Assembly: GCA_046757925.1 (NCBI GenBank)
Contig: JBHHZE010000002.1
Coordinates: 11,117-75,116 of the forward strand
Source of the DNA: Gemmatimonadales bacterium
GTDB taxonomy: Bacteria > Gemmatimonadota > Gemmatimonadetes > Gemmatimonadales > GWC2-71-9
Length of the DNA stretch: 64,000 bases
Direction: 5' to 3'
Part shown: positions 2,824-56,058 of the stretch, one piece after another
Layout: each line of letters begins with the position of its first letter
Position numbering within the stretch: position 1 is the stretch's first letter
Program-made: the position numbers and the translations under genes
Notes under the pieces: generated by a model
What the model was told of the DNA's origin: nothing
Database searches by the model: none
What the model saw: only the letters and a program-made list of their open reading frames with translations

Positions 2824-2908
2824 TGTGCCGATGGCCGACAGATAGCATACGGTAGGTACCAGACGGATTATCCTACCCGGGTTGGTGTGCAGGGAGTGCG
2901 AGCTTGGG

Positions 2909-2928
2909 GCGCTCGGATGCTCGAGCGC
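2909..2928 (-). terminator. GC-rich hairpin just downstream of the M23 peptidase stop (possible intrinsic terminator or attenuator without a U-tract)
   Basis: Perfect 7-bp inverted repeat GCGCTCG (2909-2915) / CGAGCGC (2922-2928) with a 6-nt loop. It starts 12 nt after the stop codon at 2940-2942. Confidence 0.3.
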
Positions 2929-2939
2929 TACATCGTTGG

Positions 2940-3866: not shown

Positions 3867-4125
3867 CAGTAGTTTTTCTCGCTTCTCAACTTAGCAGCCG
3901 AGTCGGTGAGAGACGGCGCGAACCTAGCTCCAGCGGAGCGCGGTTGCCGTGATCTATCTCACGGGACGACGGGCTGTGGCCAAAATAAGCCAAAGCATGT
4001 TCTCGACAAGCCGGATCGAGAAAGATGATCTCTCGGCGGGCAGAAAATAGACCCCATGGAAGGGCTCTGTCAAGATTGTCGGCACCGTCTGGTCATTAGC
4101 CCCTAACTTATTGTCAGACAAGCTG

Positions 4126-7676: not shown

Positions 7677-7683
7677 GTGATAC

Positions 7684-11175: not shown

Positions 11176-11507
11176 GTTTTCATCGGGTCTAATAGCCGCA
11201 AACGGGTGCCATTAAGCCCAACGCAGGATGAGCAAGGTGGCTCGGTGGTCGCCGATGGCCCTGGCCGCACCACCACGTAGACGGAGGTTTCTGCTGTCAC
11301 ATAGTGTAAGCTACCGCTGCTACCGGGCGTTGTCAAAACAGCTCAGAATGCCCTATGTTACTATATAACCGGGGTTTACGGGTTGCGTGCGGCGGCGGGT
11401 GAACTGCTGCCGCTCACAGTCCACACCGGCGGCACGAGTGTGATTCCGGAACGCAATCTCCCATTCCCGGATTCCTATGGGGAAGCGAACGTTCAATAGG
11501 AGGAGCG

Positions 11508-16004: not shown

Positions 16005-17375
16005 ATGGCTAATCTGGATTCGTATGTGCGATCACAGCGCTCCCGGATGCTGAGTGAACTGAGGGACCTTCTTCGTATCCCGAGTATTTCCACAGATCCG
16101 TCCCATGATGCGGACTGTCGTGTAGCGGCTCGATGGTTGGTCGACCATTTCAAGGCCATCGGCTGTTCCAAGGCGGAGCTCTTGGCGAGCGATACACACC
16201 CTGTCGTCTATGCTGAGGGTCCCCATCGGGCAGGGCGACCCACACTGCTGGTCTACGGGCACTACGACGTGCAGCCACCCGATCCAGTCGAGCTCTGGAA
16301 GTCGGCTCCCTTCGATCCCACGATCCGGGACGGCAATCTCTACGCTCGGGGCGCTACAGACGACAAAGGCCAGGTATTTTCGATCGTCAAAGCCTTCGAA
16401 GCCGTGAGTGGAAATGGTCAACCGCCGGTCAACGTGCGCTTTCTAGTCGAGGGGCAGGAAGAATCCGGCAGCGAAGTTTTGTTCGACCTGCTCGACCGTC
16501 GACCGGAGCTCACTGAGGCGGACGCCGTGCTGATTTCCGATATGCTTTACTATGCGCCCGGCTACCCCGCGGTCGAGACGGCGCTAAGAGGGCTTTGTTA
16601 CGCGGAAATCACCGCTCGGACGTTGAAAGCGGATCTGCACTCAGGTCTTTACGGGGGAGTCGCGCCCAATGCACACGAAGCGCTGGTGCGGATCCTCTCC
16701 AAACTCAAGAGTCCTACAGGTCGCATCTTGGTACCGGGTCTATACGAAGCAGTCGCAAGGCCCCCGAAGAAGGAGCGGAATGGATGGAGTAAACTGCCGT
16801 TCAAGCCCCGCAAATTCTTGAAGGACGAAGTGGGTGCCAAAGCTCTGACGGGGCTCGCGCGCTATTCTGTTTTCGAACGCATGTGGGGACTGCCGACGTT
16901 GGACATCCATGGAATAGTGGGCGGATTTGTTGGCGAGGGTGCGAAGACGGTCATACCGGCTGTTGCAATGGCCAAGGTGAGCCTGCGGCTAGTACCCAAC
17001 CAGAAGTGGAAGACCGTGCAGCGTCAGCTGAAAGCCGCGGTCAAAGCGGTGGCGCCAAAGTATGCGGATGTTGCGGTCACCTTCGTGCACGGCGCCGATC
17101 CGGTCCAGGTAGACACGTCTGCGGCACCGTTTGCCCTGATAGATCGCGCATTTCGCGAAGTCGAGGGTCGGAGTCCGGTGTCTATCCGCTCGGGCGGTTC
17201 GATTCCGGTAGTTCCCGCGCTGGCCAAGGCAGGCGCACCGGTCATACTGAGCGGTATCGGATTGCCGGATGACGGTCTCCACGCGCCCAATGAAAAAATA
17301 GGTGTGGATCAGTTTCTGAACGGTGTTAGGGTGTTCGGACGGTTTATGGAGTTGATGGGCGCGCAGGTGAGTTAG
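16005..17375 (+). CDS. M20-family dipeptidase / deacylase
   Basis: GHYDVQPPDP, ARGATDDKGQ and LVEGQEESGS metal-ligand motifs. I chose ATG 16005 (MANLDSY...). The ORF track extends to 15957. Confidence 0.85.
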   Translation: MANLDSYVRSQRSRMLSELRDLLRIPSISTDPSHDADCRVAARWLVDHFKAIGCSKAELLASDTHPVVYAEGPHRAGRPTLLVYGHYDVQPPDPVELWKSAPFDPTIRDGNLYARGATDDKGQVFSIVKAFEAVSGNGQPPVNVRFLVEGQEESGSEVLFDLLDRRPELTEADAVLISDMLYYAPGYPAVETALRGLCYAEITARTLKADLHSGLYGGVAPNAHEALVRILSKLKSPTGRILVPGLYEAVARPPKKERNGWSKLPFKPRKFLKDEVGAKALTGLARYSVFERMWGLPTLDIHGIVGGFVGEGAKTVIPAVAMAKVSLRLVPNQKWKTVQRQLKAAVKAVAPKYADVAVTFVHGADPVQVDTSAAPFALIDRAFREVEGRSPVSIRSGGSIPVVPALAKAGAPVILSGIGLPDDGLHAPNEKIGVDQFLNGVRVFGRFMELMGAQVS

Positions 17376-18072
17376 CTGCGGCAGCCGAATCCAACACGGT
17401 TTGCAGCTCCGTCATTTGGGGGCGTTGCCCAAACGTTTCCGAAAACCCAAGAATCACGCTGTCTAAGGCGCGTCCCCAAATGTCTCGCGGCGCTATCGCT
17501 CCCAACTCACGCGCCACACTTGTCATGACGACGTCCGCCATGCCGCAAGGCTCCATCAGTTCGAAATAGGAAAGATCGGTCAGCACGTTGAGCGCAAAGC
17601 CATGCCACGTAACCCAGTGTTTGACGTGGATGCCGATGCTCGCAATCTTGCGGTCCGCCGTCCACACGCCCGTGTAGCCCTCATTGCGCTCCGACCTCAC
17701 GCCCAACTCGGAAAGTGCACGCATGAGGGCGGTCTCCAGCTGCCGCAGGAACCAGTGAAGATCTCGCCGATGCTCGGTCAAGTCATAGATGGGATATCCT
17801 ACGAGTTGACCGGGGCCGTGAAACGTGACGTCACCGCCCCGGTCGATCGAGAACACCTCGATGCCGCGGTTCCGGAGTTCCTCCCGGGGAGTTGGCAGGC
17901 TCGTTTCTTTGAAATTCCGGCCCAGCGTGATGACAGGCGGGTGCTCTACCAGCAAGAGGGTGTCACGTTCCAGAGAGTGGTCGATTCGGCTCTGGGCCAG
18001 AGACCGCTGGATTCCCAGAGCTTCGGAATATGCCATTCTTCCGAGACCGACGACGTTGAGTTCACTGCTCAT
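17344..18072 (-). CDS. lipB: lipoyl(octanoyl) transferase
   Basis: LipB-like sequence (VEHPPVITLGRN, RGGDVTFHGPGQLVGYPI, KIASIGIHV with the catalytic Lys). The ATG overlaps the upstream stop (ATGA). Confidence 0.9.
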   Translation of the reverse strand: MSSELNVVGLGRMAYSEALGIQRSLAQSRIDHSLERDTLLLVEHPPVITLGRNFKETSLPTPREELRNRGIEVFSIDRGGDVTFHGPGQLVGYPIYDLTEHRRDLHWFLRQLETALMRALSELGVRSERNEGYTGVWTADRKIASIGIHVKHWVTWHGFALNVLTDLSYFELMEPCGMADVVMTSVARELGAIAPRDIWGRALDSVILGFSETFGQRPQMTELQTVLDSAAAANSPARPSTP

Positions 18073-36211: not shown

Positions 36212-39118
36212 CTACACGCCGATCGGCTCCGCCCTCTCCTCATACGCCTCCACGGGCGGGCGGGTACAGACGAGATTGCGGTCGCCGTAGGCTCCGTCGA
36301 CGCGACCGACCGTCGGCCAGCTCTTGTGATCGCGGGTTTCGGGCGAGGGAAATGCGGCGCGCTCGCGGGAATAGGGCCGGTCCCAGTTATCCGCCGTCAC
36401 GATGTCGAGAGTGTGAGGAGCCATCTTGAGCAGGTTTATCTCGCGATCGGCTCGTCCGTCCTCGATCTCTCTGATCTCTTCCCTGATCGCGATCATTGCG
36501 GCGCAGAATCGGTCCAGTTCTTCCTTGGATTCGCTCTCGGTAGGTTCCACCATCAGCGTCTCGTGTACCGGCCATGACACCGTTGGGGCATGGAACCCAT
36601 AGTCCATCAATCGCTTGGCTATGTCCCCGACGTCGACCCCGCAGCTGGCCTTGAACGGACGAGCGTCGATAATGCACTCGTGGGCAATGAGGCCGTTCTT
36701 GCCGAAATATACCAAAGGAAAGTGGTCCTTTAGCCGGTGGGCTATGTAGTTGGCGTTCAGGATCGCAATTTGGCTTGCTTTCTTTTGTCCATCGGGACCG
36801 GTGAGGGCGATGTAAGCCCACGAGATGGGCAGAATCGATGGACTGCCCCAGGGTGCGGCGGCCACGGTGCCACAGGATCTCTCGCGACCCAGTGGAACCA
36901 CGGGGTGATCGGGCAGAAACGGTGCCAGATGGCTCGCTGCACAGATCGGGCCCATCCCTGGGCCACCTCCGCCATGGGGGATGCAGAACGTCTTGTGAAG
37001 GTTTATGTGGCAGACATCAGCACCGATGTCACCCGGGCGGCACAACCCGACCTGGGCATTGAGATTGGCTCCGTCCATGTACACTTGACCGCCATACTCG
37101 TGGACGATCGCGCAGACGTCGCGAATCGTGCTCTCGAACACGCCGTGGGTCGACGGATAAGTCACCATCAGAGCAGCTAGGTCGATTTGGTGTTCCTGGG
37201 CCTTGGTCTTCAAATCATCCAGGTCGATGTTCCCGCGATCGTCTGTGGCGACCGCCACGACTCGGAATCCAGCCATTACAGCGCTGGCCGGATTGGTTCC
37301 GTGAGCCGAGTCGGGTATCAGACAAACCGATCTGGTGTGCTCCCCCCGGGAACGGTGATAAGCCCTTATAGTCAGTAGGCCGGAGAACTCTCCCTGCGAA
37401 CCGGCATTGGGCTGCAGCGAGGTATGTGGCAGTCCCGATATCTCTGCGAGTTGCTGCTCGAGTAACTCGAACAGAATCCCATAGCCTTTGGCCTGCTCGC
37501 GTGGTGCGAACGGGTGGATGTTGGCAACACTCGGCCAAGTTATGGGAATCATTTCAGTAGTGGCATTGAGCTTCATTGTGCAGGAACCCAGAGGGATCAT
37601 TGCCGATGTCAACGAAAGATCGCGGGCCTCGAGCGTCTTCAAGTAGCGCAGCATTCCCGTCTCGGAGCGGTACCTCTGGAACACCGAATGTGTTAGAAAG
37701 GGCGAATTACGGCGGAGCGATTCCGGTATGGTAGTTGCGTTTCCGATCTCTGCGGCCACGCTCTCGAGGTCCGGTGGCGGGGATCCGTCCGGTGCGAACG
37801 CTGCGGCAAGGTCGGAGACGTCTGCCAGGGTTGTAGTCTCGTCCAGTGAGATCCCGATCTTTCCGCTCGGCATGGCCCGCAGGTTGATCCTGCGCTGCCG
37901 CGCCGCCTCGAGGACGTCGCTCGCAGTGGATGCTTCGAGCTCCACGCACAGGGTATCGAAGTACGCGGTGTGTAATACGTCATGTCCCAGCCGCTTGAGT
38001 AGTTCACCTAGAGTGGCGGTGAGTGCATGTACTCGTCGGGCGATTCTCAGGAGGCCGTCAGGGCCGTGATAGGTCGCATACATGCCGGCGACGACCGCAA
38101 GTAGCACCTGCGCGGTGCAGATGTTACTGGTTGCTTTGTCGCGCCGTATGTGCTGTTCGCGGGTCTGGAGCGCCATTCTGAGTGCCGGCTTGCCGGAGCT
38201 GTCCAGTGACACGCCGATTATGCGTCCGGGCACCCGTCTCTTGTATTCGGCACGGGTAGCAAAGAAGGCAGCGTGCGGTCCACCGTACCCCAGCGGTACG
38301 CCAAACCGCTGTGAGTTACCGACTGCTATGTCAGCACCCAGGTCGCCGGGTGCTCGGAGCATCGTCAGAGCCAGCAGATCGGTTGCAACGGTGACCAGCG
38401 CACCCGCGCCATGAGCCCGATCGCACACCGGCCTCGGGTCGATCAGCGAGCCGTCGCTTCCCGGATACTGAACCAAGGCGCCGATCACGTGGTCGGTAAA
38501 CTCGAACTCAGCTGGATCGCCTAATGCGATTCTTATGCCTCGTGTACCGGCCCGCGTTTCGAGAACCGCGATTGTTTGAGGATGACAGTTTTGGTCTACG
38601 AGGTAGATGGGAGCGTCGCCGGATTTGGTGACAGCGACTGTCATCGTCATCGCTTCTGCCGCGGCAGTCGCCTCGTCCAGGAGCGAGGCATTGGCTATAT
38701 CCAGCCCGGTGAGATCCGATACCATGGTTTGAAAATTCAGGAGCGCCTCGAGCCTGCCCTGGGCGATCTCAGCTTGGTAGGGTGTGTATGCCGTATACCA
38801 GCCTGGATTCTCCAAGATATTCCGTTGGATTACGGCGGGTGTGATACAGTTGGCATACCCCATTCCGATGAACGATCGATACTGTTCATTCTGAGCGGTG
38901 ATCTCGGCCAGCGTGCGTAATACTTCGGGTTCGGGCTTGGCGGCCGGCAGGTCCAGCGGGCGTTCCAGCCGGATATCTCGGGGCACGACGTCGTCTGTCA
39001 AGGCATCTAGAGAATCGTAGCCCAAGGTCTCCAGGATCGCCTCTATGTCGGCGGGTCGCGGTCCGATATGTCGGGTGATGAATTGTTCGGTATCAGTATG
39101 GGGCAGTGCCGTACCCAT
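36212..39118 (-). CDS. gcvP: glycine dehydrogenase (decarboxylating), single-chain P protein
   Basis: 968 aa, GcvP-like end to end ([20 protein letters not shown]-like [30 protein letters not shown] with the PLP Lys). Confidence 0.97.
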
Positions 39119-41377: not shown

Positions 41378-42733
41378 CTATCGGCGGTCGAGCCGCGCTT
41401 TGATGCTCGTACCTCGGATTGCTATGCCGTTCAGGCCGTCCAGGGCCTTCGACACGGCCTCGGATCGCACCTCGACGAGCGAAAATCTGTCGCGCTGCTC
41501 GATCTTGCCAATCTGGTCTTTCGCCAGGCCTACGGCGTTTAACAGCGCCCCGACGATGTCACCGATTCTGACGTGATCTGCGCGGCCCGCGTTGATGCGA
41601 ACGCTGGCCCATGCCTCTTGCAGTTCATACTCGGCTTCGGCTCCGACGCCGGAAGTCGTGCCCCGTTGAGCGGCCAGAGCGGCCGCTACCACCGCGGGAT
41701 CGTATTCGTCGAACAAAGGTGCGAGCGTGAGCATAGCACCGGAGTTGTCGTGCTTCGCAATTGTGTCGCGAATCTGCTCGCGGAGCATTGCGGCGCGCTC
41801 GCGGGCCAAGTCTACTTCGGATTGCAGCCGGAACGCACGTGGCTTGAGTACCACCGACGAGAGGCTCGCGACCTGGGTGGGGCGAATCAACAGTAATACC
41901 TGGTCGGCCACCTCGGTCAATTTTTCGAGGATCTGACGCGTCGGAAGCTCCACCGAGATCGCCAGATCAGTCGGAGCGGGCGGATCGGTGTTCACTGAAA
42001 TTGCCGAATCGCAAAGCATCTCCTTCCAGGTCGGACTGCGAGCCTGGTCGGGATCCCAGATCACCACGGACCTGGGGTTCAGGATATCGAGTGCGGATCT
42101 CACCGCGCGGGACAGATGTAGAGAGTCGACGGCGGCATAGCGTATGGTAAGCTCTATCGGTTCGGAGATCGGGGCGGCCCGCGCGACAGGCGCTCGCCGA
42201 GCGTGACGGTCCAGAAAGTCGCTAATCTCCACCTCGTTTTCCGTTAACACTATTCGTTGCACGCCGCCCAGTTGGGATAGGGCGGTGTCCAGGGCTTCCG
42301 ATGAGCCAAGGGCGAACTGGGACCTGGGCCACGCAAGTACAATGCGCTTGACCGAGGTGAGATCTATGGCTGAGCGCCGCATGAGCTGGATGAAATCCGG
42401 TGCGGTGGCTATCAAGGTCGCTATTTCATGCCGTGCCAACAGGCGGGTCGTACGGGCAAAACCGGTGAGAGGGTGCACCTCTCCCAAGGGCTCGAGGGAT
42501 CGCAAGGCTCGCGCGCCGTCTTCCACTGTCGCGCGATCTGGGGCGAGGATGAGGGTGATTCCATTCGACGGTCCAAGGGTCCCGAGTTTCGCGAACAATG
42601 GAGCGGTGGTCCACCAAGCGGGCGGGCACACATATACCAAACTCTTTCCCGCACCCAGCGCTCCGCGCTGAGCGGCATCGAACTCCGGCGCAAATTCCCA
42701 AGACACTTCACCCTCGATTGTCAAAAAGGACAC
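41378..42733 (-). CDS. DEAD-box-helicase-like protein with degenerate catalytic motifs and an intact C-terminal DbpA-type RNA-binding domain
   Basis: C-terminus WASVRINAGRADHVRIGDIVGALLNAVGLAKDQIGKIEQRDRFSLVEVRSEAV matches the DbpA RBD pattern. The N-terminal part follows the DEAD-box order (GAGKS; LILAPDRA; ATAPDF), but DEAD is replaced by LAWP, SAT by TEN, and no HRIGRTGR is present. Confidence 0.65.
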   Translation of the reverse strand: MSFLTIEGEVSWEFAPEFDAAQRGALGAGKSLVYVCPPAWWTTAPLFAKLGTLGPSNGITLILAPDRATVEDGARALRSLEPLGEVHPLTGFARTTRLLARHEIATLIATAPDFIQLMRRSAIDLTSVKRIVLAWPRSQFALGSSEALDTALSQLGGVQRIVLTENEVEISDFLDRHARRAPVARAAPISEPIELTIRYAAVDSLHLSRAVRSALDILNPRSVVIWDPDQARSPTWKEMLCDSAISVNTDPPAPTDLAISVELPTRQILEKLTEVADQVLLLIRPTQVASLSSVVLKPRAFRLQSEVDLARERAAMLREQIRDTIAKHDNSGAMLTLAPLFDEYDPAVVAAALAAQRGTTSGVGAEAEYELQEAWASVRINAGRADHVRIGDIVGALLNAVGLAKDQIGKIEQRDRFSLVEVRSEAVSKALDGLNGIAIRGTSIKARLDRR

Positions 42734-46658: not shown

Positions 46659-46729
46659 GAGGAGGCCGTCTGGCGGCCCAGTCTTCGAAGAATCTTCTCG
46701 ATAGCGCAATCCGCAGCGTCGGCGGTGTT

Positions 46730-47611
46730 GTGGGAGCAGGTGCTATCCTCAGTCACGTCCCGGAACCCATACGCAGGCCCTTTGGATCGGCGGAGCTGGT
46801 CGAAACCAAGCGGCTCGAAGCTATTCCGGTGGGCGAGCCCGTTGCCGAGCCCCCGGCTGCGGGGTTCCTAGACGGTATTCAACGCTACTCGCTTGCAGGA
46901 AGACTGGGCCTGAACCCGGTTGTGCGCGCGCACGTTGCAGCGGCCGTGCTGGCTAGATCGGACGGCGAACTCCGAGTTGCGTCGGAAGATGACGAGCAGT
47001 TCGTCGCAGTTCCGCTCGATCGATTGTCCGAACGACAGCGACAGCGACTGGCAGAAGTTGGAATGCCCATTCACGACTGTGGTGCTGATGCGCGTGCCCA
47101 CCCATTTCTGGATCTGCAGCGGGCGGCTGAGCTCGTTCAGCAACGCCGCGAATTGCTGGAAGTCCGCGTGGCCCGTGAGTACGCCAGGTCGTCCCATGCC
47201 GGATGGTTGGTGGTGGACGGGTCAATAATGGGTCACGATCTGGATTGCCGCATCCTGGGGGTGATAAAGAGTCACGAAACCCAATTCTTTGAAGGTGAAG
47301 AACTCGAGACCGCCCTCACTCTTGCACCGGGCTGCCGAACGAGCGTGTTTGCTCGTATTGTGCAAGGACGGGGTAGAGTGCACAGTTGGTATCTCAGGCT
47401 TTGGCCATGGGAGGAACACGATCTCTTGTACGGATTATTGCGAATAGAGTGCATGTGCAGGGAGCCGGTGCAGGAAGCGACGGAAGTAAGCCGCTGGTTA
47501 CTTGCCGAACGTGCTCCCCTGTCAGCACCTGACGGGAGATGGGATCGCCTCATTTATCCGATCAGACAGGTGGAAGAATATCTCCGCGCGCGCACGGGCG
47601 GATGGATATGA
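46730..47611 (+). CDS. nurA: NurA-like nuclease
   Basis: Acidic motifs in NurA order: GFLDGIQ, ELLEVRVARE, WLVVDGSI, plus C-terminal RLIYPIRQVEEYL. It sits immediately upstream of herA and overlaps it. Confidence 0.6.
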   Translation: MGAGAILSHVPEPIRRPFGSAELVETKRLEAIPVGEPVAEPPAAGFLDGIQRYSLAGRLGLNPVVRAHVAAAVLARSDGELRVASEDDEQFVAVPLDRLSERQRQRLAEVGMPIHDCGADARAHPFLDLQRAAELVQQRRELLEVRVAREYARSSHAGWLVVDGSIMGHDLDCRILGVIKSHETQFFEGEELETALTLAPGCRTSVFARIVQGRGRVHSWYLRLWPWEEHDLLYGLLRIECMCREPVQEATEVSRWLLAERAPLSAPDGRWDRLIYPIRQVEEYLRARTGGWI

Positions 47612-49551
47612 TCCGTCTGGGCAGCGACGATTATGTGGGCAGGGTGGTCGCCACCGAGGCGATGCCGGCGGGGCCGCACCAGTTTTACTTTTGGACCGCG
47701 GTCGATGCGACGCTCGGTATAGGCGCCATCGTGAGAGTAGATGGTGACGATGATCGTATCGTTTTTGCGGTCGTGGTCGATGGGCGGGCATACACGGATC
47801 TCGCCACGGCGTTGCATGACGTTCTGGCTACGGATGGTGACCCGTCCGGCACCCGTCCGCCGACCAAACGTGTGGAGGTCCGGCTCTGGACGGCTGCGGT
47901 GCTACGTCAAGAACCGGAGGAGCCGGTCCAGCCTGTGCCGCTGGCGGGTGTGCGATTGGCGACGCGGGACGATGTCGCCGCGGCCTTACGGATGGATTTG
48001 TATGTTGGAACGGATCGCTCTACAGGTCTACCGATTGGTCTGTATACGGCGGGCGGAACGAGTGCGCCGATCCACTTGGACGCCGAGTTCCTGCTCGGTC
48101 CTGAATCGGCGCATCTGAACCTGTCCGGAGTGTCAGGGCTGGCCACCAAGACCAGCGCGGTACAGTTCTTCTTGTCGAGCATTTTCCAGACGTTTCCAGC
48201 TCACAAGGGAAGTATTGCGGCGGTGTGCATCAACGTTAAGGGTCCCGATCTATGTTTCCTCGACCAACCGGGAGAGCTGACCGACGGAGATCGGGCGATG
48301 TATGCCGAGCTGAAGTTGGAACCGCGGCCGTTCGACCGGGTGCGCTACTACGCTCCCTTCAAGGGAGATGGTGTAAACCTCAACACACTGCGTTCGCATC
48401 CCGATCTAGTTGGCTCGGTGCAGCCCCTCGTTTGGGGACTGCGCGAAGTGTTGGATTATCACGAAGTACTGATGAGCCGTGACGACATAGACGCCAAGTC
48501 AGACGGTCTGATCGATTTTTTGGCAGAGCGAGTCGTTGAGAAGCAATTCGACGACGAGTGGGGCAACTCGCACCGCGTGAGAACGTTCGCAGATCTGGAG
48601 CGGCTCTTTCGGGCAATCTTCGATGGACTGGAATCGCAAGGGCGGGGCGATATGTGGCGCACGCATCACATCGCCACCATACGGAAAGTGCGCAACAGGT
48701 TGCTCAACATATCTACACGATGCAAGGGGCTGGTTACCGATGATGGCACGGTAAGCGACCTCCCGTTCGGCGAGTTTGAAGACCGTTCGGTACATGTGGT
48801 GGACGTTGCCGGAATGGACCAACTCGCACAGGATCTAGCGTTCACGCGGGTAGTCTCAGAGTTGCGCGATCGTTTGGAGCGACGCGATCTGGGTGTAGAC
48901 CATGTAATCGTCTTTGTAGATGAGTTGAACAAATATGCGCCGGGCGACGGTCCCGAGACTTACGTCCGGAAGATGCTGTTGGATATTTCCGAGCGCGGTA
49001 GGTATCTGGGTCTGGTACTTTTCTCGGCACAGCAATTCCGCTCCCAGGTGCACCGCAGGGTCGTCGGCAATGCCGGCACTACGATCTACGGACGAATGGA
49101 CATGGATGAGTTGGCTACACCGGGGTATCAGGTTCTCTCTCCAGCCACCAAGATCAAGTTGGCAACTCTGCCCAAAGGGCAGCTGATGATCCGCCACCCG
49201 CATTTCACGCAACCTGTCTTCGTGCGATTCCCCCGCCCCCCGGTGCTGCCCGGTCCGGTCGGCATTCAGAGATATCCTCCGGCCAAGGACATGGAGTTTG
49301 AAGATGCGGTGGTGCTGCAGCTAGTTGGCCTGGATAGGCAACTCGAGCCGGGAAAGGTCAAAGCGGTGATAGCGGGGCGCAGGGAAGTTGATGTCAGGCG
49401 GGCCCTATTGGCGACCCGGCGGGCGCGCCCGGACGACGTCTTGGCGTTCTTTAGAGCCGCCTTGGGTCCCGCTGTGGAGAGAGAGAATGTGGGGGTGTCA
49501 CGGGTGCGAGCAGCACCTCTCAGATCGGTGGAGGATCCATATGTTTCCTGA
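47602..49551 (+). CDS. herA: HerA-like (FtsK/HerA superfamily) ATPase
   Basis: N-terminal barrel-like domain (GRVVATEAMPAGPHQFYFW...IVRVDGDDDRIVFAVVVD), P-loop-like NLSGVSGLATKTS (48127-48153) and Walker B HVIVFVDELNKYAP (DE at 48919-48924). ATG 47602 or 47608 overlaps the nurA stop. Confidence 0.72.
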   Translation: MDMIRLGSDDYVGRVVATEAMPAGPHQFYFWTAVDATLGIGAIVRVDGDDDRIVFAVVVDGRAYTDLATALHDVLATDGDPSGTRPPTKRVEVRLWTAAVLRQEPEEPVQPVPLAGVRLATRDDVAAALRMDLYVGTDRSTGLPIGLYTAGGTSAPIHLDAEFLLGPESAHLNLSGVSGLATKTSAVQFFLSSIFQTFPAHKGSIAAVCINVKGPDLCFLDQPGELTDGDRAMYAELKLEPRPFDRVRYYAPFKGDGVNLNTLRSHPDLVGSVQPLVWGLREVLDYHEVLMSRDDIDAKSDGLIDFLAERVVEKQFDDEWGNSHRVRTFADLERLFRAIFDGLESQGRGDMWRTHHIATIRKVRNRLLNISTRCKGLVTDDGTVSDLPFGEFEDRSVHVVDVAGMDQLAQDLAFTRVVSELRDRLERRDLGVDHVIVFVDELNKYAPGDGPETYVRKMLLDISERGRYLGLVLFSAQQFRSQVHRRVVGNAGTTIYGRMDMDELATPGYQVLSPATKIKLATLPKGQLMIRHPHFTQPVFVRFPRPPVLPGPVGIQRYPPAKDMEFEDAVVLQLVGLDRQLEPGKVKAVIAGRREVDVRRALLATRRARPDDVLAFFRAALGPAVERENVGVSRVRAAPLRSVEDPYVS

Positions 49552-50428
49552 GTTGCGTCGTTTGAGATCGATCTGCCTGACAGTTGGGCTGGTTTGCCCA
49601 GCGGTTGCGGCCAGTCAAGTACCTGAGGCCCTTCGCTTTAGGCCTGCGGAAAGCTCTCTGATCCACACGGTTTTGCGCTCCGAGATCGAGATGAGCGTGA
49701 TCACGCCGGATGGATCGGACACGGTGCGTGTAGTAGCGACTAGACTGGAAAGTCTGACTGAAGAGATCACCGCAGTAGCGGGCGATCGGTATTCTGTCAG
49801 ATTGACCTACGATTCGGTCCGGGCCCGTCTCCGACCTGCCGGAGGGACGTGGAAAATCCTCGATCCCGGTCCCAGGGAGGAAGCTACGGTCCGCGTCGTG
49901 CTGGGCCCCACGATGCAGGTACTGGCCTCTGCCGAGTACATCGACCAACCCAATGTAAATGTTTCCGATTCCGAAGCCCTGCGGGGAATGGCGGGCGGGT
50001 TCCAATTATCCCTGCCCGATACTCTGGTTGCGGTCGGGGGGTCGTGGACGGCGGAACTCAAGTATCCGATCACTGTCCTGGCGAGCGTGGCCGGCGATCT
50101 GGGAGTACCCAACACCGGAGAACTGATGTCGCTGGCCACGGTGACGCTCGACAGCGTGACTGCTCGCGGTACCGACCGACTGAGTTACATGACCGTGCGC
50201 GGCCGATTTCATCCCACTAGGATCGAGTCTTCGGCACAGGACGCCGGCGTTGCCGATGTGGCCGGTTCTCTGGTAGCGACGCTCATTTGGTCGTCCGGTT
50301 GGAACGCATATGTGTCGGGCGGGGTCCGCATGGTGATCAATCTGGTGACGTATAACGACACCAACGACAAAGACGTGACGTCACGGCTGCGGTTTGAGAT
50401 CGCGACGCAGTTTCAGCTTCGGGCCTAG
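49541..50428 (+). CDS. exported protein of unknown function, paralog 1 of a tandem pair
   Basis: ATG 49541 overlaps the herA 3' end by 11 nt. Signal-peptide-like MFPELRRLRSICLTVGLVCPAVAA/SQ. Beta-rich. Clearly paralogous to the next gene. Confidence 0.6.
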   Translation: MFPELRRLRSICLTVGLVCPAVAASQVPEALRFRPAESSLIHTVLRSEIEMSVITPDGSDTVRVVATRLESLTEEITAVAGDRYSVRLTYDSVRARLRPAGGTWKILDPGPREEATVRVVLGPTMQVLASAEYIDQPNVNVSDSEALRGMAGGFQLSLPDTLVAVGGSWTAELKYPITVLASVAGDLGVPNTGELMSLATVTLDSVTARGTDRLSYMTVRGRFHPTRIESSAQDAGVADVAGSLVATLIWSSGWNAYVSGGVRMVINLVTYNDTNDKDVTSRLRFEIATQFQLRA

Positions 50429-50431
50429 CTC

Positions 50432-51268
50432 TTGTTCAGGCTCGTAAAGGTCTGGCTGTTGCTGCAGATGGTTCCCGGTGTAGTCTCGGGCCAGGGCGCA
50501 CTGTTGCTTCGTCGCAGGCTCGACCTGAACGCCACGGTGCATACGGCGTTTCAAACGGTGACGCGGGTAACGTCGAGTTCGGGCCGTTACACCGAGAGCG
50601 CGGACCTGGGAGCCATGCGATGGATCGAGACCACTGATGGAGGGGGCAATGAGGTCCTTCACCTCACATATGATTCGGTACGAGTGCGAACCAGAGATCA
50701 CGGTGGCTCCTGGAGGGGCTTGGCGATCACGGACGTGGATACAGCCTGGGTTCAGATCCACATGGACGACCGCATGCGGGTAAAGCGGGTTCTCGTAGGT
50801 GGGGAATTGGCGGGGGTCACCAAGCTTCTACCTGTATTGACGGGCCTCCCGCACTTGGTGCTTCCTGAACGGGAGCTGGCGGTGGGTGACAGGTGGTTGA
50901 GTGAAACGGAGATCGCAGTCACGGGCCCGGGTATTGAAGGCGCCACCGGCCGGCCGGGCATACTTGGCCGTGCCGAGCTCAAATTGGATAGCATAGTGGC
51001 ACGCAGCAGCGACACGCTCGGGTTCATTACGGTGGTTGGGCATGTCGGACCCACGACACTCGTCAGCGTCGGTAGGGCGGGCGCCAAGGTCGTGGCGTCT
51101 GGAGCGGTCAGGGGAGGTCTAGTGTGGTCGACGGGATGGGGTTTGTTCGTGAGCGGTGCGATCCAAACTCGGCTCGAGATGACCCGAGGGACGAAGGGAG
51201 CCTCGGGTGATGGGGATGGAGATTCTCTAGTGATGGAAAAGACCACACGTTATCAAGTTCGACCATAA
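50432..51268 (+). CDS. exported protein of unknown function, paralog 2 of a tandem pair
   Basis: TTG start 3 nt after the upstream stop. Signal-like MFRLVKVWLLLQMVPGVVSG/QG. Shares LTYDSVRxRxRxxGGxW, AVGxxW, LDSxxARxxDxL and WSxGWxxxVSG blocks with paralog 1. Confidence 0.6.
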   Translation: MFRLVKVWLLLQMVPGVVSGQGALLLRRRLDLNATVHTAFQTVTRVTSSSGRYTESADLGAMRWIETTDGGGNEVLHLTYDSVRVRTRDHGGSWRGLAITDVDTAWVQIHMDDRMRVKRVLVGGELAGVTKLLPVLTGLPHLVLPERELAVGDRWLSETEIAVTGPGIEGATGRPGILGRAELKLDSIVARSSDTLGFITVVGHVGPTTLVSVGRAGAKVVASGAVRGGLVWSTGWGLFVSGAIQTRLEMTRGTKGASGDGDGDSLVMEKTTRYQVRP

Positions 51269-51272
51269 CACC

Positions 51273-52463
51273 TTGAAGCTCGCTCACCTCGCTGATATTC
51301 ATCTCGGGTTCAGGCAGTACTACCGTCAGACACCCGCGGGCATAAACCAACGAGAGGCCGATGTAGCCAACGCCTTCAGGAGAGCCATCGACGACGTCGT
51401 GTCTGCCCGGCCCGACCTGGTGCTAATCGCGGGTGATTTTTTTCATTCTGTGCGGCCCACGAACCAGGCGATCATCCACGCCTTCAGCCAACTTGGCAGA
51501 CTGAGGACAGATCTTCCCGGGGCGCCCGTGGTCATCATCGCCGGCGATCACGACACTCCCAGGTCGGTCGAGACAGGATCCATCCTCAAGCTCTTCGAAG
51601 CCATCGGTGGTGTCCATGTAGTCTCGGAGTCTGTCAAAGAAATTGCGTTCGAGGAACTCGACCTCGCCGTCACGTGCGTTCCCTTCGTGACCCATTTGAC
51701 GGGCTCTCTGCATGTTCTTGAGCCGGAACGCCAAGGTGCGAAACTGCGAGTACTGGTCACGCACGCGGAGATCGCCGGCGTTCTGCCGTCCGAACGGTCG
51801 GCGGCGGAGTATGGAGGAGTCGTGATTGAACCCGGCGCCCTGCACGCCGAGAGTTGGGACTACGTTGCCTTGGGCCACTATCACGTGGCCCATCGAGTCC
51901 GCAAGAACGCCTGGTATTCGGGCGCGTTGGAGCATGTTACACGCAATCCTTGGGGTGAACTCAAGGACGAGGCACGAGAGGGTCGGCAGGGGCAGAAGGG
52001 CTGGCTGCTGGTCACCCTGGGTGCCGAATTGCGTGTCGAATTCCAACCGATAACTATGGAGCGCCAGTACATAGACCTGGAGCCGATTCATGGCGCCGGG
52101 CTTACTGCAGGACAACTCGACCGACTGATAGCCGAACGCATAGAGGGTGTGTCGTGCGGCATCACCGGTCAGATCGTGAGGCAGGTTGTTTGGGATGTTC
52201 CGCGGGCGATTGTCCGCGATCTCGATCACGCAAGAATCCGCGACTTCAAATCGAAGGCCTTGCATTTCAATCTGGATATACGGCGACCGATGCCCGAGCG
52301 GGTGGTAGGGATTGGGACGCCAAATGGTAGACAGACGCTGGCGGAATTAGTGGCGGACTACCTGGCTCGTCGCGACATGCCGTCGAAAGCCGAGTCGAAA
52401 CGACTCGTCGGGCTGGGGACCAAGTACATGAAAGCTGTTGAGCAGGATTTTCTAGAGGAATAG
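51273..52463 (+). CDS. sbcD: Mre11/SbcD-type DNA repair exonuclease (calcineurin-like phosphoesterase)
   Basis: MKLAHLADIHLG (motif I), LIAGDFFH (II), IIAGDHD (III), LVTHAEI (IV), ALGHYH (V). TTG start 4 nt after the upstream stop. Confidence 0.88.
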   Translation: MKLAHLADIHLGFRQYYRQTPAGINQREADVANAFRRAIDDVVSARPDLVLIAGDFFHSVRPTNQAIIHAFSQLGRLRTDLPGAPVVIIAGDHDTPRSVETGSILKLFEAIGGVHVVSESVKEIAFEELDLAVTCVPFVTHLTGSLHVLEPERQGAKLRVLVTHAEIAGVLPSERSAAEYGGVVIEPGALHAESWDYVALGHYHVAHRVRKNAWYSGALEHVTRNPWGELKDEAREGRQGQKGWLLVTLGAELRVEFQPITMERQYIDLEPIHGAGLTAGQLDRLIAERIEGVSCGITGQIVRQVVWDVPRAIVRDLDHARIRDFKSKALHFNLDIRRPMPERVVGIGTPNGRQTLAELVADYLARRDMPSKAESKRLVGLGTKYMKAVEQDFLEE

Positions 52464-54878
52464 GTGCGACTCCACAGGGTAAAACTGGTCAATTTTCGGC
52501 AGCATGCTGATACCGAAATCGTGCTGGGGCCGGGGATCACAGCGGTTGTCGGACCCAACGGAGCCGGCAAGTCGACATTGCTGGAAGCCATTGCGTGGGC
52601 CTTCTACGGCAACCAAGCGGCTCGGGGCAGTCGCGACACGATTCGAAGAATCAATGCACCGGCGCGCTCGAAGGTTCAGGTGGAGGTGGACTTTGCGCTG
52701 GGTTCCCATGAATTTCACGTGGTGCGCGGTGTCTACAACGCCGAGCTGTTTCAGGACGGGCAACGCGAGGCAATAGCGAATAGCCAGCAAGAGGTCACCA
52801 GAGGAATCACTCGTGTGCTGGGGATGACACACGACGAATTCTTCAACACGTACTTCACCGGTCAGAAGGAGTTGGCCGTCATGGCCAACTTGGGTCCCGC
52901 CGACCGCGCTCGCTTTCTCTCTAGGATTCTCGGTTACGACAAACTCAAGTTGGCTCAGGATCGCTTGCGCAAGACGCGCTCTGGTTTGAAGGGAGAGCTG
53001 ACCGGGTTGGAACAGGGGTTGGGTGACAAAGAGGCACTGCTAGCTGAGTTGCAAGGAGCCAAAGAACGCACGCGCGAGATCGAGCAAAGAGTTGAAACGG
53101 CCACCGCGTCGCTTCAGCGTGCCAAGGAAGTGCTCGAAGTAGAGGGTCCTGAGTGGAGCCGCATGGTCTCGGTGCGGGAGTCGGTACTGTCTCTCGAGAG
53201 CGAAATGCGTGTTGCCGAGAGGGATGTCGAAGAGGCGCGGCGCGAATTCGAGCGGCTGGACAAGGAATTAGCAGAGGCGCTCGCTGCCAGATCGCAGCTG
53301 GAGACCATCGGGCCCGAACTCGCGCGCATCCGGCCGCTATCTGAAGAGCTGGACCGGTTGGACAATGAGGCACAGGCGTCGGGGCGGAAACGGGCTCTAT
53401 CCGGCCAGCTGCGAGAGGTTGAGAAACAGGGTCGATCCCTGTCGCAGCGTGCGGCTGAGATCGACGATGCGCCCAAGCAATTGGAAATCGCTCGCCAGGA
53501 GTTGGAGGACCTGCGTAAGCTGCTGCGTCAGGCGGAAGGAGACGTGGAGAAAGCAAACACGGCGTGGATTCGGGACAAGCAGGATGCTGAGACTAAGCGC
53601 CAATCTCTGCGCGACCGATACCGGGATTTGCAGGACCAACGAGAGCGAATTGTTGCGGCGGGCTCGGAGGGCGAGTGCCCCACGTGCGCACGACCTCTCG
53701 GACCAGAATACGGGAGCGTTCTAAAGGCGTTGGAGCGCCAACTGGAAGAGATCGAGATTGACGGCAGATACTTTGCACAGCGCGTCGAACAGCTGTCGAA
53801 GGAACCGTCGGAGCTGGCGGATAAACGTGAGATCCTGGCGCAGTCCAACCGTGACTACGAGCGTGGCGTGGAGCGTGTTACCAACTGTGAGAGTCGAGTG
53901 CGAGAGAGAGAGCAAGTGGCGTCTCAGCTGCGGGAGTTGGAAGATCGGAAGGCTCAACTGGAGCAAGAAATCAAGGATCTTCCGGAAGTGTACGATGCCG
54001 ACAGGCACGAGGCAGTGAGGGACGAGTTGCGGTCGCTCGAACCAGTCAAGACGCGCGGCGTGGAACTGCGGGTCAAGGCTGAGGCCGCCGAGACCCTGGT
54101 CCAGAGGGCGGAGGCGGCTGAGTCCGTGGTATCGGAAGCCGAGACCCGATTCGATCAGTTGCGCAAGGCCCTGGAGGACCTGGGCTACAGTGACGATCTG
54201 TTTGCACGGGCTCGGGAAAGCTACGAGCAGGCCGAGTCAGCGGTGAGGGAGGCGGAACTCCAATTGGTGGCGGTTGAAGGCGACCGTAAAGCTGCCAGGG
54301 CGGCTGTGGAGTTGGCGGAGCGGCGTGTTCGGGAACGTGAGGAGCGAGCGGCACGTGTGGACAACATCAAGGCAGACCTGCACTTGCATGATGAGCTGGA
54401 TGCTGCCTTGGGAGATCTTCGTGTGGAGTTGAACGCTACGATGCGGCCGGAAATAGCGGAGCGCGCCTCGGTTTTCTTTTCGGATCTCACTGACGGACGC
54501 TACGACGAACTCGAACTCGACGATCACTATCGCGTCCTAGTGGTTGAGAACGGCCTGCCAAAGTCGGTAATTTCTGGTGGAGAAGAAGACTTGGTAAACC
54601 TCGTCCTCAGGCTGGCTATCAGCCAGATGGTGGCGGAGCGTGCGGGTCAGCCGCTGTCGCTGTTGGTGCTCGATGAGGTGTTTGGCAGTCTCGATGAGGA
54701 TCGCAGGCATCATGTGGTCGAGCTGTTACGGCGACTTACGGGGCGATTCCCGCAGGTGGTGCTGATCACTCACATCGAGTCCATCAAGGAAGGAGTAGAC
54801 CGAGTTTTGCGTGTGGAGTTCGACCAGGACAGAGGTGCTGCGGCTGTTACCGAGAGTAGGGAAGCCTCGACTTGGTAA
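52464..54878 (+). CDS. sbcC: Rad50/SbcC-type SMC-like ATPase with zinc hook
   Basis: Walker A GPNGAGKSTLLEAI, a long coiled coil, CxxC hook CPTC at 53676-53687, signature ISGGEEDLVNLVLRLAI, Walker B LLVLDEVFGSLD, H-loop LITH. The GTG start directly abuts the sbcD stop. Confidence 0.9.
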   Translation: MRLHRVKLVNFRQHADTEIVLGPGITAVVGPNGAGKSTLLEAIAWAFYGNQAARGSRDTIRRINAPARSKVQVEVDFALGSHEFHVVRGVYNAELFQDGQREAIANSQQEVTRGITRVLGMTHDEFFNTYFTGQKELAVMANLGPADRARFLSRILGYDKLKLAQDRLRKTRSGLKGELTGLEQGLGDKEALLAELQGAKERTREIEQRVETATASLQRAKEVLEVEGPEWSRMVSVRESVLSLESEMRVAERDVEEARREFERLDKELAEALAARSQLETIGPELARIRPLSEELDRLDNEAQASGRKRALSGQLREVEKQGRSLSQRAAEIDDAPKQLEIARQELEDLRKLLRQAEGDVEKANTAWIRDKQDAETKRQSLRDRYRDLQDQRERIVAAGSEGECPTCARPLGPEYGSVLKALERQLEEIEIDGRYFAQRVEQLSKEPSELADKREILAQSNRDYERGVERVTNCESRVREREQVASQLRELEDRKAQLEQEIKDLPEVYDADRHEAVRDELRSLEPVKTRGVELRVKAEAAETLVQRAEAAESVVSEAETRFDQLRKALEDLGYSDDLFARARESYEQAESAVREAELQLVAVEGDRKAARAAVELAERRVREREERAARVDNIKADLHLHDELDAALGDLRVELNATMRPEIAERASVFFSDLTDGRYDELELDDHYRVLVVENGLPKSVISGGEEDLVNLVLRLAISQMVAERAGQPLSLLVLDEVFGSLDEDRRHHVVELLRRLTGRFPQVVLITHIESIKEGVDRVLRVEFDQDRGAAAVTESREASTW

Positions 54879-55849
54879 AGCTGTGGCATCCGGCGAAAGG
54901 CCTTCACGGTCCTCGGCGTCCGACGACCGAGGACATACCCCTGTTGAACCAGTTGTTTTCCGACTCGTTCACCGATCGCTACAGGCGGGACGGACTGGTG
55001 GGCGTACGGGTCCCGCAGCTCAATCCCGAAATCTGGCACTACGCCATCCGGGATGCGGGAGACGGTGCCATGCTTTGGTTCGACGAAAGCGACGAGTTGG
55101 TGGCGTTCAACATCGCCCATCACTCGGGAGTCGAGGGGTGGATGGGTCCGCTGGCGGTGCGTTCAGACAGGCAGGGCTTGGGTGTCGGTCGGGCGATAGT
55201 CCAGACCGCGGTCGATTGGCTTAAGGAGGCCGGAGTCAGAACCCTGGGACTCGAAACAATGCCTCGGACGGTGGAGAACATCGGTTTCTACACCAGGTTG
55301 GGGTTCGTCCCGCAGCATCTCACGATGACCATGACGTGCGATGCGGCCGGACGGAGCGTGAGAGGTCGCTTCACGCAGGTGGGTCGCTTGGCAACACCGG
55401 ACCGGGCAGACGTGCTGCGACGGTGTCGCGACAGACTGGCCCGCTCGGCGGAGGGATACGACTTTACTCGTGAGTTGGAACTCAGCCGCGAGCTGGATAT
55501 CGGCGATGCAGTGGTTGTGACACAGGAAGGGCAAGTGCAGGGTTTCGCTCTGTGGCATTCAGCTCCCCTGGCGCAGGAGCGATCGGTTGATGAGCTCAGA
55601 GTGCTCAAGCTGTTCGCGGATTCTCCAGCCACGTTTGAAAAGCTGGTGGTGGCTGCCGAGAGATGCGCGAGGCGACTGAAAATTCCGAAGGTTGCAATTC
55701 GCTGCCAGACCGCGTTCGCCGATTCCTACATGAAGTTGGTGGAGTTGGGATACCGTGTGAGATGGACGGATCTCAGAATGACTCTCAACAGGTTTCCCGA
55801 AGTAGTGCTGCCGCCCGGAGAGGTTCTTTTCTCCAACTGGGAGATATGA
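54872..55849 (+). CDS. GNAT-family N-acetyltransferase (two-lobed, about 325 aa)
   Basis: Acetyl-CoA site-like RQGLGVGRAIVQTAVDWLKEAG...FYTRLGF. The TTG start overlaps the rad50 3' end by 7 nt (start codon uncertain). Confidence 0.78.
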   Translation: MVKLWHPAKGLHGPRRPTTEDIPLLNQLFSDSFTDRYRRDGLVGVRVPQLNPEIWHYAIRDAGDGAMLWFDESDELVAFNIAHHSGVEGWMGPLAVRSDRQGLGVGRAIVQTAVDWLKEAGVRTLGLETMPRTVENIGFYTRLGFVPQHLTMTMTCDAAGRSVRGRFTQVGRLATPDRADVLRRCRDRLARSAEGYDFTRELELSRELDIGDAVVVTQEGQVQGFALWHSAPLAQERSVDELRVLKLFADSPATFEKLVVAAERCARRLKIPKVAIRCQTAFADSYMKLVELGYRVRWTDLRMTLNRFPEVVLPPGEVLFSNWEI

Positions 55850-56047
55850 CTAGCTTGGCTTGCCAGTAGCAATTCGCACCGCAATTAAGACGACACCGAC
55901 GGCCAGCGGCAGGTTGACCCACCCCGTGGGTAACTGGGTAATAAACGCAAGAATCACCCACAGCACAATGCTGAATATGGCGCCGGGCATTATGAAACTC
56001 TGCTTTAGCATTTCTGCAATCTCATGTAGTTGACGTTCATTGGCCAC
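55850..56047 (-). CDS. possible small membrane protein
   Basis: 65-aa ORF with two hydrophobic helices (AIFSIVLWVILAFI, LPLAVGVVLIAVRIA). GTG start. Its 5' end overlaps a promoter-like element on the other strand, so the true start may be an internal Met. Confidence 0.35.
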   Translation of the reverse strand: MANERQLHEIAEMLKQSFIMPGAIFSIVLWVILAFITQLPTGWVNLPLAVGVVLIAVRIATGKPS

Positions 56048-56058
56048 ACCTCTATATT
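56030..56058 (+). promoter_or_regulatory. near-consensus sigma70-type promoter-like element
   Basis: TTGACG (56030-56035), an exact 17-nt spacer, then TATATT (56053-56058). It points toward folE, about 320 nt upstream of the folE GTG. Confidence 0.3.

Follow-up and report, generated by a model that had tools for sequence, protein, structure and literature searches.

Locus and gene junctions

Seven genes lie almost end to end on the plus strand at positions 46730-55849 of a 64,000-nucleotide stretch of DNA (hereafter the window), which is part of a Gemmatimonadales metagenome-assembled genome, the product of the first gene being 100% identical to NCBI protein ACE5HT_01090. In order, they encode a NurA-family nuclease, a HerA-type ATPase, two exported paralogues (genes 3 and 4), Mre11, Rad50 and a GNAT acetyltransferase, and the initial annotation of this DNA was right to see the NurA, HerA, Mre11 and Rad50 families linked here, all four being present in one tightly packed string that is conserved across the phylum Gemmatimonadota.

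Read from the sequence, the junctions between the seven open reading frames range from -11 to +4 nt, and every coordinate given in that annotation, which had pointed to seven plus-strand genes with near-zero intergenic DNA, is borne out. The herA ATG (47608) overlaps the nurA stop within an ATGA (47608-47611) and the ATG of gene 3 (49541) overlaps the herA stop (TGA, 49549-49551), after which a 3-nt gap separates the gene 3 stop (TAG, 50426-50428) from the TTG of gene 4 (50432) and a 4-nt gap the gene 4 stop (TAA, 51266-51268) from the mre11 TTG (51273). The rad50 GTG (52464) directly abuts the mre11 stop (TAG, 52461-52463), and the GNAT gene begins at a TTG (54872) that overlaps the rad50 stop (TAA, 54876-54878). 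The starts of Mre11 and Rad50 are independently backed, their first residues aligning to position 1 of the P. furiosus Mre11 and the Rad50 models. Stop and start codons that overlap or abut in this way would permit coupled, roughly stoichiometric expression of the string.

The sole non-coding gap at the 5' end is an intergenic region of 71 nt (46659-46729, plus strand), the presumed promoter and leader, in which a simple consensus scan gave no sigma-70 consensus match. The annotation had regarded internal promoters, together with a gene order unique to this genome, as grounds for abandoning its proposal; the same scan found neither a sigma-70-like promoter nor a plus-strand terminator inside 46730-55849, bearing in mind that the promoters of this phylum may deviate from the consensus, and the order is not unique. 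The sole sigma-70-like match in 45.8-56.6 kb (TTGACG, a 17-nt spacer and TATATT; 56030-56058, plus strand) falls past the GNAT stop, within the 533 nt that precede folE, an indication that folE and the short-chain dehydrogenase/reductase (SDR) gene that follows it are transcribed as a unit of their own. Closely packed junctions are nothing unusual in this genome, two genes upstream of the operon overlapping by 4 nt and folE and the SDR gene by 1 nt, and for this reason conservation across species is the stronger evidence for an operon.

Conservation across Gemmatimonadota

A scan of a genome collection, started from the Walker B motif of HerA, recovered a relative in at least 579 species genomes, the best 80 loci all being from Gemmatimonadota. 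Genes were counted over these 80 species-level loci by tblastn with the proteins of the window, the denominators being the loci with enough flanking sequence. The nurA gene lies upstream of herA in 67 of 72 loci and mre11 downstream of herA on the same strand in 63 of 65, with rad50 adjoining mre11 in 53 of 54 and the GNAT gene adjoining rad50 in 47 of 48; the four core genes were all found in 61 of all 80 loci and all five, GNAT included, in 53 of all 80. The core of the operon is nurA-herA-mre11-rad50-GNAT. Whether the string recurs in relatives had been proposed as a check, and it does: the same order, with the exported genes as its variable element, is present in dozens of species-level genomes, and the arrangement is more than chance.

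Identity to the proteins of the window is highest for HerA (66-79%), followed by GNAT, Mre11 and Rad50 (approximately 45-66%), NurA (38-57%) and the products of genes 3 and 4 (28-45%). The variable point of the operon is the junction between herA and mre11, where 35 loci have a gap of no more than 250 bp, 13 a gap of 700-1100 bp (the length of one gene), 11 a gap of 1500-1900 bp (the length of two) and 4 a gap of some other length. Larger spacings also occur, with approximately 1.7 kb between nurA and herA in loci L054, L070, L073 and L080 and 2-4 kb between herA and mre11 in L033 and L048; given these inserts in some Gemmatimonadales lineages, the junctions of the operon act as insertion hot spots.

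The flanks of the operon are likewise syntenic in more than 60 species-level genomes, with genes for an S58 peptidase, an aminotransferase and an O-methyltransferase upstream and folE and the SDR gene downstream, and the remainder of the window, too, is core chromosome, encoding DnaE, MetRS, glutamate dehydrogenase, lipoamide dehydrogenase, GcvP and an Opp transporter. G+C content is uniform across the window, and on the strength of this uniform composition and the syntenic flanks we reject a horizontally acquired island.

The NurA-HerA module

The nurA gene (46730-47611, plus strand) encodes a protein of 293 aa whose assignment draws on a family profile and a predicted fold. The protein is without a match in Pfam (E <= 10), NCBIfam (E <= 1) or PADLOC, and a single-sequence search of the PDB returned nothing. 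A family profile of 38 sequences, compared with PDB sequences, gave as its top two matches D. radiodurans NurA (7f6d_H, E 0.0012) and T. maritima TM1739 (1zup, E 0.0068), both of them weak. The AlphaFold model (predicted local distance difference test score, pLDDT, 87.1; predicted template-modelling score, pTM, 0.84) has the RNase H-like, PIWI-like fold of NurA, and Foldseek against the PDB ranks D. radiodurans NurA first (7f6d_G, E 1.2e-13, query template-modelling score, TMq, 0.64), TM1739 second (1zup, E 6.8e-11) and S. solfataricus NurA third (2ygk, E 1.1e-6), with EndoV and Argonaute PIWI domains ranking after these three NurA-type matches. Aligned by structure, the protein and D. radiodurans NurA share approximately 18% identity. 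A hidden Markov model (HMM) of the Gemmatimonadota NurA family also matches the proteins of approximately 380 aa encoded directly upstream of distant herA genes (E 1e-11 to 1e-41). Judged by profile and predicted fold, the product of gene 1 belongs to the bacterial NurA family, in which it is short and very divergent. Across the orthologue alignment the family conserves D48 (in FLDG), E144 and D163 (in VVDGS), with H182 invariant; D163 aligns with the 'QDG' motif of D. radiodurans NurA, and the equivalence of these positions to the published catalytic residues is putative.

The herA gene (47608-49551, plus strand, from the ATG at 47608) encodes a predicted hexameric translocase ATPase of 647 aa, for which the homology is far easier to see. 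With the single protein as query, phmmer matches D. radiodurans HerA in the PDB (7f6d_B, E 2.5e-38) over residues 8-280 and 344-544, and the family profile does so over its full length (positions 5-555, E 2.2e-92), so that the relationship to a characterised HerA spans both the N-terminal HAS-barrel region and the RecA-like ATPase. JGI names the homologues of this protein 'DNA helicase HerA-like ATPase'. A deviant Walker A motif, GVSGLATKTS (174-183), and the Walker B motif VDELNKYAP (437-445) are invariant or nearly so among 81 orthologues, an ERGRYL motif is invariant in the same 81 sequences, and K181, D438 and E439 remain invariant even across relatives of approximately 30% identity. The family is of modest size, comprising 1,321 clusters at 50% identity (E <= 1e-3). 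By analogy with characterised HerA proteins, the gene product is predicted to form a hexameric ring to which a NurA dimer binds and to translocate double-stranded DNA at the expense of ATP.

Curated models recognise neither protein: HerA has no Pfam match, the DUF87 and HerA models included, and a spurious NCBIfam match (E 0.075) is the only one in that collection. Profile searches had been put forward in the annotation as the means to confirm both families, their failure to be read as telling against it; taken literally the curated Pfam and NCBIfam models do fail for both proteins, but the two identities are upheld by sequence and profile matches in the PDB and by structure. By sequence and profile, and for NurA by fold as well, the two proteins are placed in a bacterial, Deinococcus-type clade. 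Even the profile of the HerA family fails to detect S. solfataricus HerA, and for S. solfataricus NurA the match is one of fold only.

The Mre11-Rad50 module

The mre11 (sbcD) gene (51273-52463, plus strand) encodes a nuclease of 396 aa with a Pfam Metallophos match (E 3.5e-11), identified from its motifs, its adjacency to rad50 and its PDB matches. Among NCBIfam models it scores better against Mre11_Sulfo (E 1.2e-23, 84 bits, for a cut-off of 500) than against sbcD (E 4.9e-18), and against the sbcd subfamily model it reaches 65.8 bits (cut-off 77.65). Its best PDB match is P. furiosus Mre11 (1ii7, E 1.6e-15), followed by SbcD (7dog, E 6e-9) and the T. maritima protein (E 9e-9). The phosphoesterase motifs are present (DIH at 8, GDFF at 54, GDHD at 91 and GHYH at 201), the catalytic histidine is kept, and the DxH, GD and GHxH motifs are conserved among orthologues. 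The GDHD of motif III (residues 91-94; 51543-51554, plus strand), in which an Asp stands for the Asn of the GNHD of P. furiosus Mre11 at a metal-ligand position, had been singled out in the annotation; the substitution is there, as described, but it is local variation rather than a hallmark. Among 74 sequences the motif reads GNHD in 53, GEHD in 14, GDHD in 4 and GTHD in 2, and we reject GDHD as the mark of an unusual Mre11, the position being one that tolerates N, E, D or T within the phylum and GDHD a minority variant at it.

The rad50 (sbcC) gene (52464-54878, plus strand) encodes an ABC-ATPase with a short coiled coil, matched by Pfam SMC_N, AAA_23 and SbcC_Walker_B. As the annotation had it, the protein has 804 aa and a CPTC zinc hook (residues 405-408; 53676-53687, plus strand), of which CPxC is conserved in the orthologue alignment. 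The ATPase head is split in the manner of Rad50, with SMC_N covering residues 3-788 and SbcC_Walker_B residues 703-756, the Rad50 heads in the PDB matching both ends; a conserved Walker A motif, GPNGAGKS, lies at 30 and an SGGE at 704. The best PDB matches are the Rad50 proteins of M. jannaschii (E 3.7e-29), P. furiosus and T. maritima, weaker SMC chains being listed too.

Both proteins share their superfamilies with E. coli-type SbcCD, that is, an SMC-like ABC-ATPase with a CxxC hook and a metallophosphoesterase nuclease, but by sequence they are more like archaeal Mre11 and Rad50. The archaeal Rad50 model PRK03918 gives 220 bits (E 5.9e-65), compared to 104 bits for sbcC TIGR00618 (E 4.6e-30) and 48 and 42 bits for the Bacillus and Staphylococcus SbcC models, and the Mre11 and Rad50 matches listed from the PDB are archaeal or from T. 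maritima, plus one chain of SbcCD subunit D. SbcC of E. coli, at approximately 1,050 aa, is also longer than the Rad50 here. As both proteins score below the curated equivalog cut-offs, they are divergent members of their families.

The window's highest base skews fall over this part of the operon (GC skew +0.16 at 52001-56000 and AT skew +0.125 at 52-54 kb), probably reflecting the purine-rich codons of a Rad50 coiled coil rich in Glu, Arg and Ala and not a foreign origin. Two long open reading frames run antisense inside mre11 (51423-52265, minus strand, 280 aa) and rad50 (52945-53556, minus strand, 203 aa) and are probably artefacts of high G+C content rather than genes.

The GNAT acetyltransferase and the exported paralogues

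The last gene of the string (54872-55849, plus strand) encodes an acetyltransferase of 325 aa, with Pfam Acetyltransf_1 matched at residues 54-145 (E 3.4e-13). Its nearest named profiles are RimI-like and weak, and its C-terminal half (approximately 170 aa) has only a faint GNAT_LYC1-like Pfam match (E 0.11). The annotation had counted GNAT and the exported paralogues alike as extra passengers, a description that fits the exported genes, present in 0-2 copies, and fails for GNAT, which its position next to rad50 in nearly every locus marks as a conserved fifth member of the operon. Linkage so close to perfect suggests a functional tie, perhaps regulatory acetylation.

Genes 3 (49541-50428, plus strand, 295 aa) and 4 (50432-51268, plus strand, 278 aa) encode exported proteins that are 28% identical (E 7e-23), making them paralogues, and both carry an N-terminal signal-peptide-like sequence (MFPELRRLRSICLTVGLVCPAVAASQ in gene 3), so that the annotation was correct on each count. 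Neither matches anything in Pfam, NCBIfam or PADLOC, and a word-indexed search found only 5 homologues of gene 3. An HMM of the family places members in the slot between herA and mre11 in 32 loci, all with signal peptides and many with a lipobox Cys. The AlphaFold model of the gene 3 product is all-beta (pLDDT 77.5); kinship to porins, PsbO or LmcA was considered from Foldseek comparisons with PDB and viral structures and rejected, with template-modelling scores of at most 0.3 and a likeness typical of long beta strands.

Public gene calls differ at the start of both genes. The NCBI call for gene 3 (P0121, 245 aa) begins approximately 50 codons later and loses the signal peptide; the ATG at 49541 is favoured because of full-length homologues (P0122 and P0123) and the family-wide signal peptides. 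Gene 4 has its signal-like N-terminus only when read from the TTG at 50432, one public call starting instead at an ATG (50468, 266 aa). Individual loci carry 0, 1 or 2 copies, the full seven-gene form being restricted to the closest relatives (roughly L003-L011), and the exported genes are lineage-variable, dispensable riders.

Relationship to known systems

Reviews treat HerA-NurA as the end-resection machinery of archaea and RecBCD, AddAB or AdnAB as that of bacteria (PMC7752040). In archaea, HerA-NurA and Mre11-Rad50 work together in resection (PMC3326311, PMC4351679), and in Sulfolobus the genes are ordered herA-mre11-rad50-nurA, all four being essential in S. islandicus (PMC4351679). The operon described here shares with those of Sulfolobus, Pyrococcus and Thermococcus the presence of the four families in one operon, a zinc-hook Rad50, and Mre11 and Rad50 proteins that score best against archaeal models and structures; presumably it also shares the division of labour, in which end recognition precedes resection by a HerA-driven NurA. 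It differs in its order, nurA-herA-mre11-rad50, in the Deinococcus type of its HerA and NurA, in its conserved GNAT and variable exported genes and in its bacterial host, for which nothing points to thermophily. The description of the operon as archaeal-style therefore holds for the four families and for the archaeal-like Mre11 and Rad50, but not for the gene order or for HerA and NurA.

Among bacteria, the closest solved relatives of both NurA and HerA are those of D. radiodurans (PDB 7F6D) and the Thermus NurA-HerA (NurA-HepA) pair, with which the HerA here shares its deviant Walker A. D. radiodurans NurA-HerA resects DNA ends (PMC9960219), and in Thermus, as here, nurA precedes herA with an overlapping stop and start, the nurA-hepA pair being set among metabolic genes (PMC5448004). 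In contrast to the present operon, the Deinococcus and Thermus pairs are unlinked to sbcCD (PMC5448004, PMC4663267), and NurA here, at 293 aa, is shorter. The annotation had supposed bacterial NurA and HerA to be unlinked to sbcCD in general, which a published precedent contradicts: Blesa et al. (2017, PMC5448004) noted in passing that in Oceanithermus profundus sbcD-sbcC lie directly downstream of nurA-hepA. The order in this bacterium is the one seen here, although the likeness is one of published gene order rather than of compared proteins, the precedent concerns a single thermophilic genus of Thermales, and GNAT and exported genes are not reported there (PMC5448004).

The wider distribution was sampled by a metagenome scan with HerA representatives approximately 30% identical to the HerA of the window, giving 80 loci outside the phylum. 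In these distant loci nurA lies directly before herA in 61 of 65, but mre11-rad50 follows herA in just 1 of the 43 with at least 3 kb downstream. The four-gene linkage is rare among bacterial nurA-herA pairs and the rule in Gemmatimonadota. The one exception, L160 (Ga0315280_10004190, 6774-13199), is the sole nurA-herA-mre11-rad50 locus found outside Gemmatimonadota and has overlapping junctions and approximately 50% G+C. It is flanked by genes for an Eco57I-type restriction-modification methylase (2343-5285, minus strand) and an N6/N4 DNA methylase (16266-17567, minus strand), a setting that resembles a defence island, unlike that of the window, and a defence reading may apply elsewhere.

A likely history can be sketched from these comparisons. 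Because HerA and NurA are of bacterial type, nurA leads as in other bacterial pairs and the order differs from that of archaea, the operon most likely came together from an archaeal-like mre11-rad50 and a bacterial nurA-herA pair rather than being imported whole from archaea, as far as sequence comparison can tell.

Function of the operon

We think it probable that the string is a chromosomal, vertically inherited operon of Gemmatimonadota for processing the ends of double-strand breaks, the gene identities, junctions, conserved order and context set out above being its observed foundation. Modelled on the biochemistry of the archaeal and D. radiodurans proteins, Mre11-Rad50, a zinc-hook ABC-ATPase with a metallophosphoesterase nuclease, would recognise and trim DNA ends, and a HerA hexamer would drive double-stranded DNA into a dimer of NurA, to be resected 5'-3' over long distances, providing a 3' tail for RecA. 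The terminal GNAT might modify or regulate a component of this machine or its substrate. The physical cooperation of the two modules, the part played by GNAT and the role in repair are all things that we infer.

Several observations weigh against this proposal. The case for a single transcript is one of geometry and conservation. Unrelated genes have entered the string, namely a glycerol-3-phosphate-oxidase-like flavin adenine dinucleotide (FAD) oxidoreductase gene between nurA and herA in L054 and a gene for a PAS-histidine-kinase-receiver hybrid between herA and mre11 in L072 (12056-14065), so strict translational coupling is not required. In approximately 8 of 73 NurA orthologues the first putative catalytic Asp, D48, is replaced by Asn (SFLNGIER) with E144, D163 and H182 kept, and these may be nuclease-attenuated variants of NurA. 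Finally, D. radiodurans nurA and herA mutants show little radiation sensitivity, the link to SbcCD being left open in that study (PMC4663267), so that a repair role in bacteria is not guaranteed.

The most direct challenge to an end-processing operon is that its two modules are mere neighbours, with NurA-HerA and Mre11-Rad50 in separate pathways (HerA-NurA acting, for example, with RecJ or in the processing of replication forks, as suggested for Deinococcus) and GNAT and the exported genes unrelated but co-transcribed. D. radiodurans HerA does interact with RecJ (PMC4663267), 42 of the 43 distant metagenome loci with sufficient downstream sequence lack mre11-rad50, the Thermus and Deinococcus pairs are unlinked to these genes as well (PMC5448004), and insertions of 0, 1 or 2 exported or other genes gather at the herA-mre11 junction. 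Yet herA and mre11 are within 250 bp of each other in 35 loci, and nearly all the Gemmatimonadota genomes sampled keep the four genes and GNAT adjacent in the face of 45-80% divergence of the proteins; moreover, an association that archaea, Oceanithermus and L160 share, whether by separate origin or by retention, points to functional coupling, and we regard separate pathways as rather unlikely. A role at the cell envelope, in DNA transfer, uptake or segregation, would make HerA a pump and the exported or lipoprotein paralogues its envelope partners. The homologues of HerA and NurA affect transjugation in Thermus (PMC5448004) and the exported family does occupy a fixed slot in 32 loci, but about half of the loci do without it (those with the short herA-mre11 gap), it evolves fast (28-45% identity against 66-79% for HerA), HerA is without membrane-associated features and no other transfer or competence genes lie nearby, all of which leaves such a role very improbable.

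The annotation had offered as its alternative an anti-phage or foreign-DNA surveillance system, in which a HerA-nuclease pair and an SMC-like ATPase and nuclease would destroy invading linear DNA in the manner of SIR2-HerA, DUF4297-HerA, TdpAB or Lamassu-like systems. There are resemblances to be accounted for: HerA weakly matches PADLOC mad8 (E 1.6e-5), the nuclease subunit of TdpAB (8wfd_G, E 1.2e-5) is among the structural matches of the NurA model, and Rad50 matches the generic SMC-type models LmuB and mad3, although these score below the Rad50 models and reflect shared P-loop and SMC similarity. The HerA family profile, too, weakly matches the PDB chains 8xau (E 1.5e-6) and 8ziq, which we take to be defence-system HerAs. 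The metagenome locus L160 lies between two DNA-methylase genes, as noted, and there has been speculation that HerA-NurA breaks down foreign DNA (PMC3326311). For this lineage, however, defence is very unlikely. PADLOC offers no match for NurA, genes 3 and 4 or GNAT; the locus and both its flanks are syntenic among housekeeping genes in the many genomes counted above, the opposite of a variable island; base composition is uniform; and relatives of HerA are nearly absent from plasmids, with 5 weak matches in 72,556.

An end-processing operon thus remains the reading we prefer, and it can be taken a step further, to a version that we hold to be doubtful: that the operon is the main double-strand-break resection machine of Gemmatimonadota, doing the job of RecBCD or AddAB, with GNAT as a dedicated regulatory fifth component that would gate resection by acetylating either a subunit or a partner that binds DNA ends. 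If this were so, a non-thermophilic bacterial phylum would offer a natural model of 'archaeal-type' resection with a previously undescribed control by acetylation. As to novelty, the protein families, their mechanism and their linkage in one bacterium (Oceanithermus profundus) are known already, and the advance is incremental; what is new is a phylum-wide instance of a known system, with a conserved GNAT and a variable exported family. Among the papers searched, none links Gemmatimonadetes with HerA or NurA in this sense. That a whole bacterial phylum holds both modules in one operon is genomic evidence for their cooperation in bacteria too, and the operon would lend itself to tests of that cooperation if cultivated Gemmatimonas species carry it; the conserved GNAT is flagged as a candidate regulator.

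Neighbouring genes

Two further observations concern the genes upstream of the operon. The minus-strand gene at 41378-42733 encodes a 450-aa protein that ends in a DbpA RNA-binding domain (E 6e-19) and gives a faint match to DeaD dimerisation, its first approximately 300 residues having no DEAD or Helicase_C match in Pfam; the syntenic gene is likewise DbpA-only in L002 and L163. Glycine-cleavage genes, gcvP (36212-39118) together with gcvH, lie within approximately 8-10 kb upstream of nurA, both in the window and in L002. The Thermus hepA is followed, at a distance of 13 bp, by gcvT (PMC5448004), and the proximity of glycine-cleavage genes in the two cases may be a coincidence or the remnant of a shared ancestral context.

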